IMG/VR virus record: IMGVR_UViG_3300008262_000013
Origin: a virus
Taxonomy: Duplodnaviria > Caudoviricetes
Reading direction: 5' to 3' (one strand)
DNA: 64,000 bases
How positions within the stretch are numbered: the first letter of the stretch is position 1; each line of letters opens with the position of its first letter. A program made the position numbers and the translations under genes. This document shows, in pieces, positions 930 to 7,486 of this stretch. The notes under the pieces were generated by a model. It did not search any database. It worked only from the letters and a program-made list of their open reading frames with translations, and had not been told where the DNA came from.

Positions 930-956
930 AAAACCCACCGAAAGGTGGGTTTTTTA
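930..956. terminator. Bidirectional Rho-independent terminator between convergent gp32 and the 954-2807 ORF
   Basis: AAAA-CCCACC-GAAA-GGTGGG-TTTTTTT: 6-bp GC stem, GNRA loop, U-tract on + and A-tract (U-tract on -). Confidence 0.9.
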
Positions 957-2807
957 TGCGATAATACTTCGAAACAAATTTGGTAAATAATCTTTAGATT
1001 CTGACTGATTTTCCATCACTATTACATTTTGTTGATTAGTATTATTGTTGATGAAAACTATTGGAGTATCTTCATTCATTGATCCAAAAGCCACATTAAA
1101 AGAAGAATTATCTATCATCTCACCCATATTACCCATGGATTGAGGACTAAAAACTGGAGGATTTTTTCTTATTTCTTCAGCCAAAGCTCTACCTTCAGAT
1201 TTCATTTTATCTGGAGAAATTTCTCCATGTCCAACTACATTTAAATCTCCATGACGTTTTCTTAAAAAAGCAACAAGAGCTTTTGCTGATTTGGTTTGAG
1301 CTTCAGTAAATGATTCACTATTTTTAGAAACTATTTCTACACCAATTGAGTTTTGATTCGTTACTCCCGATTTAGTTCCAGCGTGGTACATGATTGATTT
1401 ATCTGGAGCTATGTTATAAACAGTTCCATCTCTATCAATCACATATTGAACGCCGTGTTTATAACCTTTGCTTTTGCCTTCTTTGTCTGTTTGAAATCTT
1501 TCAAATTCATTTAAGGCACTTGTTAATCTATTATCACCAGTATGGTGCAGAACAACATTTTCAACTTTAGACATTTGACCATAAATTCCAAAATCACCAG
1601 TAACTTCTTTCATTTTGAAGCCTTCTACATTTACATCTTTTATAGTTCTAGGACCAGCTGGTTTTTTTACGAAACCGCCTATTGGTGTTCCTATTCCTAA
1701 TGAATCAAATAAAAGTTTCAAATAATTTTGAGATGCTTTGGTGTCTACTCCTACAGTTCCACTCCAAATTCTAGCTGCTTCATTTAAAGGTTTTGATTTA
1801 TACATTGGAGATTCCCATTTTTCTCTCTGAGCTTGTTTTCCAGCTTCAACAGTAGGAAATTGTGCAAAAGGAATTTTTTTACCATTTACATTTAAGAAAT
1901 GTTTTTCAGAAGGTTTAGCTCCCAATTTTTTTTGAGATTCATCTTTTTCATTATAAAGCATTGCTCCAGGATTATTAAGTTCAGTTGGTTTTGTTCCTTT
2001 TACACCAAATCCTTCAGCTTTTGCTTGAGCTTCCAAAAATTTCTTTTTTTGATCTTCAGTTAAAGTACCAAATGTTAACCTGGACATTTCTCTTTCGATA
2101 TCGGACGCATCAGTAAAAAAATCAATCGACATTACTTCATCAATCGATTTTTGTACTGATTTTAAGAAATCATCAATAGATTCTTTTAAGTCTATATTTC
2201 TTATTCTTTCAACCGCATTATATACACCTTTAATAGCTAAGGTAACCATACCTAAAAGACCTGCAAAAAATGCTGCATCCACTAAAACTCCAAAATTAAA
2301 AGATCCTGAATTTGGTTTAGTGATTTGTCTTTCCGGAGAATTGTTATTTCTTAAATTTGATAATTGTGATTCATACATTTCTTCTCTTTTTGCGGCAGCT
2401 TTAAAATACATATCAGCTTTTGTTGCTGCATCAAATTTTTCCAACTTTAAAAGTTTTACAATATTTTGTCTAATCACATTGAAGTCTCTGTGAATAGAAG
2501 GTAAAACACTTAGATTTTTAGCTGTAATTCTGGTGTCAGATTGTATATTTTCAAATATAGGTTTTATATCTGAAACATCCACTGAAGATTTTTCTATTGA
2601 TTTTCCGGATATCCTAGGATTTGATCCTGCTTTCGATTGGTAAGTTTTTAATCCCGGAAATAAAGCAGCTAATAAACCTCTTTGATTAATTAACTGTCGC
2701 GGATCAAATTTTTCTTTTAATCTTTCTTTGATACCTCCGGCCAAAGCTCCAGTAACGCTGCTACCCTGACTTCTTCGATATGATACTATTTCGGATAATC
2801 TAGACAT
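954..2807 (-). CDS. Tape-measure/baseplate-hub-like virion protein with a lysozyme-like segment and a C-terminal N-acetylmuramoyl-L-alanine amidase (Amidase_2) domain
   Basis: Amidase motifs VVLHHTG, YVIDRDG, YHAG, NQNSIGVE, VVGHGE; internal NNPGAM...FAQFPTVEAG...WSG lysozyme-like motif; helical N-terminus; position after gp26/gp51 where T4-like phages carry gp29-type genes. Confidence 0.65.
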   Translation of the reverse strand: MSRLSEIVSYRRSQGSSVTGALAGGIKERLKEKFDPRQLINQRGLLAALFPGLKTYQSKAGSNPRISGKSIEKSSVDVSDIKPIFENIQSDTRITAKNLSVLPSIHRDFNVIRQNIVKLLKLEKFDAATKADMYFKAAAKREEMYESQLSNLRNNNSPERQITKPNSGSFNFGVLVDAAFFAGLLGMVTLAIKGVYNAVERIRNIDLKESIDDFLKSVQKSIDEVMSIDFFTDASDIEREMSRLTFGTLTEDQKKKFLEAQAKAEGFGVKGTKPTELNNPGAMLYNEKDESQKKLGAKPSEKHFLNVNGKKIPFAQFPTVEAGKQAQREKWESPMYKSKPLNEAARIWSGTVGVDTKASQNYLKLLFDSLGIGTPIGGFVKKPAGPRTIKDVNVEGFKMKEVTGDFGIYGQMSKVENVVLHHTGDNRLTSALNEFERFQTDKEGKSKGYKHGVQYVIDRDGTVYNIAPDKSIMYHAGTKSGVTNQNSIGVEIVSKNSESFTEAQTKSAKALVAFLRKRHGDLNVVGHGEISPDKMKSEGRALAEEIRKNPPVFSPQSMGNMGEMIDNSSFNVAFGSMNEDTPIVFINNNTNQQNVIVMENQSESKDYLPNLFRSIIA

Positions 2808-2808
2808 T

Positions 2809-4773
2809 TTAATTCTTAAAAGGACCTAATGGGTTGGACATCATATCAGAAAAGTGTTTATCTATGAAATCATTATTCCAAGCAGAAGCTGCACCTCCGA
2901 GTCCTCCTACAAAAGGTGGAAAACTTTTTTTATCCGATTCTTGAGTTATAACGATTGGTTGTTTAAACACCACAGATTTTTTTCTATTATCAAATGTTTT
3001 ATCTATGATGTTTGTTGTATAAAAATCTTTCATTTGTGTTTCTAAACTTCCTGATAAACTTGTAAGACTGTTTCTTGCTGTGTTAGCAGTATTCTTTATA
3101 ATTGAACTAACGTCGGGAATATCTAAATCTTTAACAAATTTTTCACCCGCTTTTTCTACGTTACTTGTGATGCCTTTCATTATATCACTGTTCATAATTA
3201 CATCAGTTGCTCTTTCAGTATAAGCGTCAAGAAAACCTGGATCTAAATTTTCCATAACACTTCGCAAGTTGGAAAAGTAAATACGTTTATCGGCACTATT
3301 TGAATTAATTTGTTCTGCAACAAAATTTGCAGCAAAACTTAATAAATCACTTTTTATTATATTAAATTCTTCTCTGAGTTTTGTTTTAGCAGGACTTGCT
3401 GAATTTTGTAATGAGATTAGTTTTCTAAGTGCTGAGAAGTATTCTCGTTGTTTATCACCGTATTCGACAGCTTGTTCTTTTGTCAGTAAAAAAGGATGAG
3501 TATCATTAAGTCCTGGTATGTGTATTTTATACATATTTCTCATTTTACTATAGTATTCTTGTAAAACTCCAGGAGCAAACCTATCTTTTAATATATTTTT
3601 TTGTAACTCAGTTAATTCTCCATTTTTTCCTAATTGTACAGATTTTCCTTCTGAAGCTCCGATTATAGAATATTTTGCATTTGCATCAGCCGTCAAACCT
3701 ATTAATTTAGATCTTTCTAATTCTTCTCCTTCCATTTTTCTGCCACTTGTTGGCAATTCAGAATATTCTCCTTTTTTTAAATCCAAAGATTTTTCATTTA
3801 TTGTTTGTTGATACATATCTTTATCGGATATGTTTTTATCCTGTAACATATTTGCTTGTCGTCTTGCTTCTGGAAGTATTGATAGACCAAAAGCTCCAGC
3901 AAAAAATGCTAATAATCCCATTCCTATTCTTATTAATCCTTTTGGACTTAATACAAATCCTATAAGTCTACCTATTATTGATCTAATTAATATTTTAACT
4001 AAATCACTTGAGATGAATCCTACGATTGTTTTAAGTATGTTCTTAAGGTTTGGCATTAATCCAGCTAAACCGGACAAAGCTCCAAAAAAGGCCTTTCCTA
4101 AAGTTGTAAATATAGTGCCTACAATTCCGGCTAAAAATTTAAATGCTCCTAATATAGCTTTACCAAGACTAGCTAAAGCACTAACGACTGAGGATAATCC
4201 TTTCACTATTGAAGAAATTAATTTTTGAAAAAAACTTTTAGTGCCATCATCTTGTTTTTTCTTTTCATCTTCTTTTATTTTTTGGATTCTACTTTGTTTA
4301 TTTCTTTCTTTTTTTAGTTCCCGTTCATATTTGTCCTCACGTTCTTTTGCTTTTACAAAATACATATCGGCTTTTGTTCTAGCGTCACCGCCTTTTAACT
4401 TTACTAATTTTACTATATTTTGACGAATTACATTTACATCTCGGTGTAGTGCTGGTAAAACCATAGTATTTTTTGCTGTCATTTTTGTATTGAATGAAAT
4501 GGTTTCCAACATAGGTTTTATTTCATCAAAAGACGTAACTTGCATCGAAGATTGTGATATTTCTGATGCGGAAGTTTTTGCTTGATATGTTTTTAGTCCA
4601 GGAAATAAAGCAGTTAATAATCCTCTTTGATTAATTAATTGCCGAGGATCAAATTTTTCCTTAAGTCTTTCTTTGATACCACTAGCTAAAGCTCCAGTAA
4701 CGCTGCTACCCTGACTTCTTCGTGAAGCAACGATTTCTGTTAATCTTCCTCTTGATGGTTTTTTAGTTGCCAT
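2809..4773 (-). CDS. Tape-measure/baseplate-hub (gp29-like) protein, paralog of 954-2807
   Basis: N-terminal ~150 aa closely similar to the adjacent ORF; charged coiled coil followed by a long hydrophobic/amphipathic Gly-Ala-Leu-Phe-rich stretch typical of tape measures; directly downstream of gp51. Confidence 0.55.
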   Translation of the reverse strand: MATKKPSRGRLTEIVASRRSQGSSVTGALASGIKERLKEKFDPRQLINQRGLLTALFPGLKTYQAKTSASEISQSSMQVTSFDEIKPMLETISFNTKMTAKNTMVLPALHRDVNVIRQNIVKLVKLKGGDARTKADMYFVKAKEREDKYERELKKERNKQSRIQKIKEDEKKKQDDGTKSFFQKLISSIVKGLSSVVSALASLGKAILGAFKFLAGIVGTIFTTLGKAFFGALSGLAGLMPNLKNILKTIVGFISSDLVKILIRSIIGRLIGFVLSPKGLIRIGMGLLAFFAGAFGLSILPEARRQANMLQDKNISDKDMYQQTINEKSLDLKKGEYSELPTSGRKMEGEELERSKLIGLTADANAKYSIIGASEGKSVQLGKNGELTELQKNILKDRFAPGVLQEYYSKMRNMYKIHIPGLNDTHPFLLTKEQAVEYGDKQREYFSALRKLISLQNSASPAKTKLREEFNIIKSDLLSFAANFVAEQINSNSADKRIYFSNLRSVMENLDPGFLDAYTERATDVIMNSDIMKGITSNVEKAGEKFVKDLDIPDVSSIIKNTANTARNSLTSLSGSLETQMKDFYTTNIIDKTFDNRKKSVVFKQPIVITQESDKKSFPPFVGGLGGAASAWNNDFIDKHFSDMMSNPLGPFKN

Positions 4774-4776
4774 ATT

Positions 4777-4914
4777 TTATCTCTTTTGATTTTGTGCTGC
4801 TTTTAATCTTTCAGATTCTTCTTCTAGATATCTCATTAACATATTCACATAGATATCTTTTTCCCAAGGAATCATATTCTCCAACTCTGTTAAACTATAT
4901 TTGTGATGTTGCAT
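4777..4914 (-). CDS. gp51: Baseplate hub assembly chaperone gp51-like (absent from the ORF track); reading frame is open up to the slippery site at 4971-4977
   Basis: Manual translation: (FFRLTFGHDNLQNHYHTNFAL)MQHHKYSLTELENMIPWEKDIYVNMLMRYLEEESERLKAAQNQKR*; MQHHKYSLTELENMxPWE is the T4-like gp51 signature. Confidence 0.88.
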   Translation of the reverse strand: MQHHKYSLTELENMIPWEKDIYVNMLMRYLEEESERLKAAQNQKR

Positions 4915-4964
4915 TAACGCAAAGTTGGTGTGATAGTGATTCTGCAAATTGTCATGACCAAATG

Positions 4965-5693
4965 TTAACCGAAAAAACTTTGTAAACCTTCTAATTCAAT
5001 GTTTTCGTGATAGCCGCATTTATTACATTCAAAATCTACTTTCTTTTTAAGTTTTGGCATAGTGTCGAAAAAATCTTTAATTTTTTCCAAATCTTTAGAT
5101 TGTAACGAATCTAAAAACTCTGTTAATTCTTCTTTAGTAGAATCTTTCGCATAATATACATTGTTTTCATCGTAAATAAAATCAATACAGTTTATAATTA
5201 AATCTAAAACAACATTAAAATCTTCTGTATTCGTGTTATCTTTTATCAAGTTCATTTTAGGATACTTCATCATGATACCTAATTTGTCTGTGATTTCTAT
5301 TTTATTTGAATGATTTTCTTCTTTAGTTGGTTCTATTTCCAAAACATTCAAATCTATTTCAACAGAACTGTTACATTTTTTAGGTTCTTCTTCTGTACCA
5401 ACATCATTATTACAACGGTACTTTAATTTGACTATTTCGCCAATTGAACGAGCTCTAATATTTAAAAATAAATGTTCAATATCAAATGTTGGCAAATCCT
5501 TTATATCAATATCACTTACTACACAATTATTTAAAACTTGCATAATTGTGTCTACAGAATATTTTGCATCATCAGATTCATAAGCCATAAGAAATAATTT
5601 TTCTTCTTTTACTGTAAAAGGTCTAAACTTAATAAACTCACCAGTAGAACTTAATTTTATTTCAAATAACGGAACATCAATTTTAGGTAACAT
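4965..5693 (-). CDS. gp26: Baseplate hub subunit gp26
   Basis: MLPKIDVP...IKFRPFTVKEEKLFLMA, FDIEHLFLNIRARSIGE, C-terminal CxxC and LEGLQSFF. Confidence 0.93.
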   Translation of the reverse strand: MLPKIDVPLFEIKLSSTGEFIKFRPFTVKEEKLFLMAYESDDAKYSVDTIMQVLNNCVVSDIDIKDLPTFDIEHLFLNIRARSIGEIVKLKYRCNNDVGTEEEPKKCNSSVEIDLNVLEIEPTKEENHSNKIEITDKLGIMMKYPKMNLIKDNTNTEDFNVVLDLIINCIDFIYDENNVYYAKDSTKEELTEFLDSLQSKDLEKIKDFFDTMPKLKKKVDFECNKCGYHENIELEGLQSFFG

Positions 5694-5704
5694 AGTAACT
5701 CCAT

Positions 5705-6454
5705 TTAAAATTTAAAGAATTTGTCAAATAACTTTGTACTTTTTGCTCCAAAGTAAGAAGCAGCTGCTTCACCCAGATCAGTATAACCTTCATAGATAGT
5801 TTGATATTTTTGATATGCGAATTGAACAGTTAATCTATGATAACCGTCATCACTCCAAGCTAACGGTTGTGCTGCGACACCTATTGGAAAAGCATCGATT
5901 AATTTTACAGAATAAATTTGTTTGATAAAGTCGTCGTACTGAAGAACTTGAATGTCCGTCATGTATCTAGTTTCTTCATCTTTGGGAAATCTTAAATTGT
6001 TGGTGTCAGATGGCATAATAGCATCGATCCAAAGATCAAAAAGTTTTCTTTCATAAAAATCGTTTGTACAGATAAAACTTAAACTCATATCATTATATTG
6101 TTTTTGATATGGTATTTTAAATGTCGGACCATAAATTTTTACATCGGCTGTTTGTAATGTTTTTCCTGGAAGTTCAGCGGTATCACACTGTAAAGAAAGA
6201 TATCTTGTGATAGAGGGATTCGAACTTCTCTTAAAAGGTACTCCTGTTGTTTCATAACTAGTTCTTGAACTTACCCAATCTGTAATGTCAGTAACAAGAG
6301 TATTTGGTAAGTTTAATAATCCTTCTAAAACTCCTGTGCTAACAAAATTACCTATGTAGTTAGGGATCGGTAAAATTACTTTAAATCTATTCGGTCTGGC
6401 TAATCCATCTTTGGCTCGAATATTTGATAAAAAGAGTGTTGGCGTAAAAGACAT
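5705..6454 (-). CDS. gp54: Baseplate-tail tube initiator (gp54/gp19-like fold)
   Basis: GLARPNRFKV, CDTAELPG, FDLWIDAI, LIDAFPIGV, LTVQFAY motifs. Confidence 0.8.
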   Translation of the reverse strand: MSFTPTLFLSNIRAKDGLARPNRFKVILPIPNYIGNFVSTGVLEGLLNLPNTLVTDITDWVSSRTSYETTGVPFKRSSNPSITRYLSLQCDTAELPGKTLQTADVKIYGPTFKIPYQKQYNDMSLSFICTNDFYERKLFDLWIDAIMPSDTNNLRFPKDEETRYMTDIQVLQYDDFIKQIYSVKLIDAFPIGVAAQPLAWSDDGYHRLTVQFAYQKYQTIYEGYTDLGEAAASYFGAKSTKLFDKFFKF

Positions 6455-7048: not shown

Positions 7049-7056
7049 TATTTATA
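7049..7056 (-). promoter_or_regulatory. T4-type late promoter (TATAAATA) upstream of gp2
   Basis: Exact TATAAATA on the - strand, 4 nt before the gp2 ATG. Confidence 0.75.
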
Positions 7057-7486
7057 CTAGACCGAGATCGTTTTCCGTAAGTATGAGAAACTTCCAACCA
7101 TGTTCTTTACAAAAGATATCTGCTGCTTTCCATTTTTCTTGATTGATTGCATAAGTCGCAGCTTCCTGTAAATACCGTTTGGTCTTTCTTTTTTGTTTAG
7201 GCATTTTTGTTTGGACTTCTGGTTTTACTTCTAGTACGTAAGTCATCACTGTTCCATCTTTTTTCTTCGTTTTTACGACAAAATCTGGAAAGTAACGGTG
7301 CATCTTTTTATCGATGGGATTGCGATATGGTATGAACAGTTCTTCTGATGCCCACCAGGTAACCATAGGATTTTCATCCAAATATTTCATGACGTAGAGT
7401 TCCCACGAAGAACGGTAGATGATATTTGTTGCATCTCCGTTATATTTCGTCGGATTTTTTGGAGTAAACTTTCCTGAATATGGCAT
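7052..7486 (-). CDS. gp4: Head completion protein (TnsA-like endonuclease fold)
   Basis: YSGKFTPKNPTKYNGD, YRSSWE, WASEE, HRYFPDF, EVKP, NQEKWKAA, ILTE. Confidence 0.95.
   Translation of the reverse strand: MPYSGKFTPKNPTKYNGDATNIIYRSSWELYVMKYLDENPMVTWWASEELFIPYRNPIDKKMHRYFPDFVVKTKKKDGTVMTYVLEVKPEVQTKMPKQKRKTKRYLQEAATYAINQEKWKAADIFCKEHGWKFLILTENDLGLV

Follow-up and report, generated by a model that had tools for sequence, protein, structure and literature searches.

The window analysed here, a 64,000-nt stretch of the genome of an uncultured freshwater T4-like phage (Caudoviricetes; IMG/VR record IMGVR_UViG_3300008262_000013), carries on its minus strand a homolog of phage T4 gene 26 whose 3′ end runs into a second, much shorter reading frame in the -1 register. 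The features of this junction are listed below by window position.

4965..5693, minus strand: gp26, the predicted short chaperone form (TAC-N); 242 aa in the zero frame, TAA stop at 4967-4965, matching PF12322 and phrog_150
4971..4977, minus strand: candidate slippery heptamer T TTT TTC, in X XXY YYZ phase with respect to the gp26 frame
4777..4971, minus strand: -1 frame extension, the "gp51" part (TAC-C); 64 residues, RLTFGHDNLQ...NQKR, TAA stop at 4779-4777
4996..4998, minus strand: stop codon (TGA) closing the -1 frame six codons ahead of the heptamer
4987..4991, minus strand: Shine-Dalgarno-like GAAGG (Glu-Gly codons), 9 nt upstream of the heptamer; possible stimulator
4912..4914, minus strand: first ATG of the -1 frame (the M of ALMQHH), codon +21 from the heptamer; rival start site

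The 3′ end of gp26 reads CAA AGT TTT TTC GGT TAA, with a single sense codon (GGT) between the heptamer and the stop. In the -1 register this region translates as H*IRRFTKFFRLTFGHDNLQNHYHTNFALMQHHKYSLTELENMIPWEKDIYVNMLMRYLEEESERLKAAQNQKR*, and the frame that opens after the TGA runs through IRRFTK-FF-RLTFGHDNLQNHYHTNFALMQHHKY...NQKR up to the stop at 4779-4777. Canonical starts in this frame are limited to a TTG at 4947 (codon +10) and the ATG at 4914 (codon +21), and the kind of stop-start overlap that would serve a coupled small gene is absent (GGT TAA CAT TTG GTC). An earlier note on this DNA, which had predicted a programmed -1 frameshift joining gp26 to gp51, described this end of gp26, the T TTT TTC at 4971-4977, the -1 relation, a TGA six codons upstream that closes the -1 frame, and the lack of any ATG before MQHH; all of these are borne out in the sequence, the TGA lying at 4998-4996 and the first ATG of the frame being that at 4914. 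In a conceptual fusion the -1 extension begins at CGG, with the C of TTC used twice, and the product is 305 aa long. Its junction residues are ...GLQSFFR, and the tryptic peptides CGYHENIELEGLQSFFR and LTFGHDNLQNHYHTNFALMQHHK are diagnostic of it.

The two parts of the junction have related family assignments. The window gp26 matches the T4_baseplate family PF12322 (E 8e-62; 209.2 bits against a curated cut-off of 24.5) and phrog_150 (E 2e-68, profile positions 7-232), and T4 gp26 aligns with it over the whole length (hhalign, 97.5%). The -1 peptide matches phrog_634, "baseplate hub assembly catalyst" (E 5.8e-28), and can also be placed on phrog_150, at profile positions 231-277 (E 4e-6).

Conservation of the junction was assessed in 80 IMG/VR relatives, whose gp26 is 53-90% identical to that of the window, together with three cyanophages (37-42%), a sample that contains 72 distinct junctions. 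The heptamer, whose conservation across homologs was an expectation of the earlier prediction, is present in every one of them, as T TTT TTC in 70 and T TTT TTT in 2, across the full span of gp26 identity from 37 to 90%. The arrangement of heptamer, one variable codon, and stop is likewise constant (72/72). Expressed as a homopolymer, the run is T6 in 70 of the 72 and T7 in the other two, and a C follows it in 70. Part of this conservation is at the protein level, because Phe-Phe is a conserved residue pair of gp26 that is also found at the gp26 end in T4. The choice of codons can be considered separately. The first Phe is encoded by TTT in 70/70 cases and the second by TTC in 68/70, while at eight other conserved Phe columns the share of TTC is 6-39%, and it is 24% among the Phe codons in these genes. 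The preceding Ser or Asn codon is always AGT or AAT (70/70) and never AGC, AAC, or TCN. The last zero-frame codon takes the form GNN (Gly, Val, Ala, or Glu), so gp26 places no constraint on this residue. In the -1 frame, however, the invariant G is the second base of a CGN codon, which specifies Arg and has a free third base.

Flanking elements that might assist a frameshift were sought on both sides of the heptamer. Upstream, GAAGG, GAGGG, or CAAGG/CAGGG occurs at the same position in every junction listed, and GAAGG/GAGGG could possibly act as a Shine-Dalgarno-like stimulator, a role that is inseparable from the conserved Glu-Gly of gp26 at this position. Downstream, no conserved RNA structure was found by RNAalifold among 26 junctions (2 invariant pairs, no covariation), and the single-sequence fold of the region following the heptamer (z = +0.43) gave no stimulatory structure. 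With no such structure conserved after the site, the efficiency of slipping may be low.

The pattern of sequence variation indicates where one coding frame gives way to the other. Upstream of the heptamer, column entropy is greatest at the third position of the zero frame (1.18). In the stretch between the gp26 stop and the ATG it is greatest at the third position of the -1 frame (1.00 vs 0.36 and 0.51), and the same holds after the ATG, so the switch in periodicity sits right at the junction and well upstream of any ATG. Across the 60 nt that lack a start, all 60 distinct sequences keep the -1 frame open and both other frames closed; the synonymous share of codon differences there is 50% in the -1 frame vs 21% and 8% in the others. 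Conservation of the -1-frame peptide follows the pattern F-G-H/Y-D/E-N-L-x-N-x-Y-x-T-N-F-A-L from codon +5, amounting to 18-19 conserved codons before the ATG. On the other side of the heptamer, nearly all relatives have a stop in the -1 frame 1-14 codons before it (28 in the relative L056). In three relatives (L058, L081, and L083) this stop lies just one codon before the heptamer, which places the change of frame at or next to the heptamer itself.

Potential starts of the -1 frame are distributed differently from this constraint. Among the 72 junctions, the first ATG, GTG, or TTG of the frame is at codon +20 or +21 in most relatives, and the TTG of the window (+10) is not conserved among them; in the window, accordingly, the -1 frame has no ATG, GTG, or TTG before +10 and no conserved one until +21. 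Early starts are confined to P-SSM2, L033/34, and L079/82, in which an ATG comes just after the gp26 stop. Two further expectations of the earlier note can be read against these data: codon conservation upstream of the gp51 ATG is indeed present, with -1-frame constraint that starts at the heptamer, and the lack of an in-frame start ahead of the HDNL segment extends to most homologs, with the exceptions just named.

Taken at the level of sequence, these features make it very probable that a ribosomal -1 frameshift at the heptamer joins gp26 to the gp51 part. Most ribosomes would read AGT TTT TTC GGT and terminate, yielding the 242-aa gp26 (TAC-N). A minority, with two Phe-tRNAs on UUU and UUC, would slip back by one base, where both tRNAs could re-pair perfectly on U UUU UU; these ribosomes would then continue into CGG UUA ACA... 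and produce a long form of 305 aa (TAC-NC), the final 64 residues of which would correspond to the "gp51" of databases. A slip of low efficiency would make the long form a minor product, as in phage lambda, and by analogy with lambda the pair may act as chaperones of the tape measure and bring in tube subunits, the short form binding the tape measure and the C-part of the long form the tube protein.

Comparison with T4 bears directly on the nature of the long form. In T4, gene 26 (minus) and gene 51 (plus) are divergently transcribed and encode baseplate-hub assembly chaperones of 208 and 249 aa, respectively. Because of this orientation a 26-51 fusion is impossible in T4 itself, which is a correction to the earlier proposal. 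There is nevertheless a long T4 counterpart of the proposed fusion product, since T4 gp51 covers phrog_150 positions 13-280 as a single ORF. Conceptual fusions were built for 30 relatives, each joining gp26, shortened by one residue at its end, to the -1 peptide starting at Arg. Their alignment matches one of four T4-type gp51 proteins with an hhalign probability of 97.6% (E 3e-12, 232 columns), and no gap is introduced across the junction: ...GLQSFF/RLTFGHDNL... (the slash marks the frame change) is paired with ...IVDVF/KLLVNPDEI... of T4-type gp51, and the -1 peptide aligns to T4 gp51 residues 200-242. Single-sequence hhalign comparisons of T4 gp51 with the gp26 and -1-peptide alignments reach a probability of only 42-49%. 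From the colinearity of gp26 plus the -1 peptide with T4 gp51 it follows that T4 gp51 is, as judged by alignment, the long chaperone form hard-wired in a single ORF, and T4 would need no frameshift because its long form is the separate gene 51. The two systems therefore share the PF12322/phrog_150 gp26 and a colinear long form, and differ in that T4 makes the two forms from separate divergent genes, whereas the window has one gene with a start-less -1 extension.

The genomic distribution of the long gene agrees with this division. In T4, Bp7, Acj133, and AB2I2, gp51 is a separate full-length gene and gp26 is followed by gene 25 without a slippery run; the T4 counterpart of the site is GAG TTC TTT GAG, and the Phe-Phe pair has been lost in two of these four phages. 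No separate long gene was found in the complete genomes of a 214-kb relative with terminal repeats, P-SSM2, S-CREM1, and Aeromonas phage AsFcp_4, all of which have only gp26 and the adjacent -1 piece, and none of the gp51 type occurs in the 96 kb of this phage's own record (58% complete).

That T4 gp26 and gp51 represent the tail assembly chaperones in T4-like phages is a finding credited to Vladimirov, Gautam & Davidson (Virology 2022;566:9-15; doi 10.1016/j.virol.2021.11.003), and papers that cite this work say that poly-T slip sites in the TAC-N genes of T4-like phages are described there. Its title argues for a mechanism other than frameshifting. Going by those accounts, the idea of a frameshift in T4-like phages was already published in 2022, and the window is a well-documented further example of it and not a discovery. 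Judging from that title, the 2022 study may not have claimed what the present data show.

Beyond the T4 group, the junction occurs in several forms. The heptamer without an early start is found in the freshwater clade, in the cyanophages ACG-2014a and S-CREM1, and in Aeromonas phage AsFcp_4. A heptamer accompanied by an ATG at or near the gp26 stop is found in P-SSM2, phiM7, RSP15, Mendera, and RL38J1, and in Mendera, RSP15, and RL38J1 the gp26 stop is part of a TGATG. The heptamer itself varies in this set, being T TTT TTG in Rhizobium phage RL38J1 (L092, about 2180-2200, plus strand) and T TTT TTT in phiM7 and RSP15 (L085 and L086). It may be that RL38J1, phiM7, and RSP15 make both the fusion and a free peptide. 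The Ackermannviridae phages VAP7 and phiDP23.1 and Vibrio phage D524 resemble the window in having a homologous small -1 ORF right after gp26; unlike the window, they have no heptamer, and a canonical ATG overlaps the stop (TAATG). For the small ORF of these three phages, separate, coupled translation is likely. The C-terminal part apparently can work as a free peptide in some lineages.

The cyanophages P-SSM2, ACG-2014a, and S-CREM1 have the same heptamer, the same -1 relation, and a homologous -1 peptide as the window, and GenBank presents the latter as an independent gene, "gp51 baseplate hub assembly catalyst", of 57, 31, and 57 aa, respectively. These annotations lie on the minus strand of their loci at the following positions.

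L001 1474-1647, minus strand of the locus: cyanophage "gp51" (GenBank)
L002 1462-1557, minus strand of the locus: cyanophage "gp51" (GenBank)
L003 1416-1589, minus strand of the locus: cyanophage "gp51" (GenBank)

The annotated starts in the three records are an ATG at codon +5, an internal ATG, and a TTG at +14, and this disagreement shows that gene callers lack a consistent start. The independent-gene annotations probably miss the real product. Elsewhere the ORF has gone unannotated: in Aeromonas phage AsFcp_4 a -1 ORF follows gp26 (L089, about 3208-3380, plus strand; FFRLTLVNDSIYDLFTVNFEMH...), and in Klebsiella phage Magnus (L095, about 2232-2400, plus strand) the -1 ORF has neither the heptamer nor a canonical start, an ATT being present where its relative phiDP23.1 has the ATG of the TAATG overlap.

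The same GenBank practice agrees with an alternative reading, in which there is no fusion and the gp51-like ORF is translated alone, from the TTG at 4947, from the ATG at 4914, or by non-canonical re-initiation after the gp26 stop, to give a free peptide of 45-64 aa that associates non-covalently with gp26. Precedent for such an arrangement can be seen in VAP7, phiDP23.1, and Vibrio phage D524, with their ATG overlapping the gp26 stop, and the ATG or GTG codons at +3 to +5 in a few close relatives would permit it there. As an account of the window, separate translation is nonetheless unlikely. In most of the 72 junctions the first ATG, GTG, or TTG comes no earlier than +20/+21, even though conservation at the protein level already covers the 18-19 codons in front of it. 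The TTG of the window lacks conservation, and the codon that follows the stop is variable (TTA, ATA, GTA, or CTA) and thus cannot be a start. Nor does this alternative account for the invariance of the heptamer and the fixed choice of its codons, or for the gap-free colinearity with T4 gp51. An identical fusion protein could also arise without any shift of the ribosome, if RNA polymerase added one U within the U6 run during transcription. The site is a homopolymer, as such slippage would require, and the run is lengthened to T7 in L033/34, phiM7, and RSP15. For bacterial RNA polymerase to slip efficiently, a run of about 8-9 A or T is needed, compared with the 6 present here. Moreover, the phase of the run is X XXY YYZ throughout, and in 70 of 72 junctions the next base is C, a configuration that fits tRNA re-pairing; the alternative that citing papers give for T4 is two separate genes rather than slippage. 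Transcriptional slippage is therefore unlikely.

A final candidate was that the T-run is an unselected feature of an AT-rich gene end that happens to lie beside an unrelated small ORF. The genome is AT-rich and TTT is a common Phe codon, but this candidate, which has next to no probability, is refuted by the invariance of the site across 72 of 72 junctions, by the reversal of codon preference at the second Phe, and by the homology of both parts to one T4 protein.

With the ribosomal frameshift as the preferred reading, the real product of the locus is likely, on what can be deduced from the reading frames, to be the fusion of about 305 aa. T4-like phages would then come under the general rule for long-tailed phages, whereby a short and a long chaperone are made from one locus, and the "catalytic" gp51 of T4 would be explained as the hard-wired long form. 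There is also a value for annotation, in that the -1 piece now appears in records as a gene in its own right, 31-57 aa long and with an arbitrary start, or, as in AsFcp_4 and Magnus, does not appear. A considerably stronger generalization would be that outside the T4 subfamily the "gp51" ORF (hundreds of records) is never an independent gene, that the long form is made only through a structure-independent -1 slip at U UUU UUC (in the freshwater clade, the cyanophages, and the Aeromonas Angelvirus), and that T4 gene 51 is a derived hard-wiring; in this full form the proposal is doubtful.

Structural comparison likens the N-terminal domain of gp26 to known tail assembly chaperones. The AlphaFold model of gp26 has a pLDDT of 86.8. 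When the model was compared exhaustively with 48,161 solved chains (VIA-align), the leading matches, which involve residues 1-94, were 3fgx (Z 8.2), the HK97 TAC 2ob9 (Z 6.9; 83 aa, rmsd 4.3), YqbN 3klu (Z 6.7), and 5ir0 (Z 5.8), top values that are moderate and are followed by a next row at Z 4.6. A Foldseek search of the gp26 model against the PDB gave no match at E <= 0.001, and a sequence-profile search of the PDB with gp26 gave nothing below E 0.07. As modeled, the N-terminal domain of gp26 resembles the tail-assembly-chaperone fold, the highest match that carries a name being a member of the family expected.

The neighboring genes occupy positions that may correspond to those flanking the chaperone genes of lambda.

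5705..6454, minus strand: tail-tube-family gene directly upstream of gp26 (lambda V position); phrog_45 "tail tube" (E 1.4e-37) and a weak match to PF23849 Phage_TTP_2
2809..4773, minus strand: putative tape-measure-like gene of 654 aa directly downstream (lambda H position); assigned by composition, with a Gly/Ala-rich hydrophobic stretch at about residues 185-300
954-2807, minus strand: second large downstream gene, 617 aa, with an Amidase_2 domain (E 4e-22)

That tape-measure-like genes follow immediately had been stated in the earlier note. The long Gly/Ala-rich hydrophobic stretch of the 654-aa product, a feature that tape measures also show, is in keeping with this statement, but the protein has no Pfam or PHROG family match and no BLASTP similarity to T4 gp29. 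The first ~190 residues of the 654-aa and 617-aa proteins are common to both (56% identity, E 4e-59), after which the two diverge, and they may represent a pair of tape-measure-like proteins with a common docking module.

In lambda, whose gpG/gpGT pair was reportedly described by Levin, Hendrix, and Casjens in 1993, two overlapping ORFs lie between the tube and tape measure genes, as they may in the window, where the upstream gene is of the tube family and the downstream one putatively tape-measure-like; a heptamer likewise precedes the stop of the first ORF by a few codons, and the second ORF is likewise in the -1 frame and without a start of its own; there too no strong RNA structure is required. 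Conservation of a -1 frameshift in tail assembly chaperone genes was reportedly the subject of a 2004 study by Xu, Hendrix, and Duda. The heptamers differ, that of lambda being G GGA AAG and that of the window T TTT TTC, and there is no detectable sequence similarity between lambda G/GT and gp26 with its -1 ORF. Lambda gpG is also about half as long as gp26, which has an extra C-terminal half with four invariant cysteines. The suggestion that gp26 and gp51 are the G/GT equivalent of this lineage gains support from the colinearity with T4 gp51 and the chaperone fold of the gp26 N-terminal domain, and the gp26 pair is probably the counterpart of lambda G/GT, to which the modeled fold would make it a distant relative.

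The four cysteines, C94, C107, C223, and C226, are invariant in 30 relatives and form two distant CxxC-like pairs, an arrangement that suggests a metal site linking the C-terminal ribbon with the middle of gp26. Cysteines also occur in T4 gp51 at the places aligned with these four. Further upstream, and set among the structural genes, is a 144-aa TnsA-like endonuclease (7052-7486, minus strand; PF08722, E 1.5e-22) that adjoins a gp2-like DNA end protector and is possibly a homing-type nuclease.
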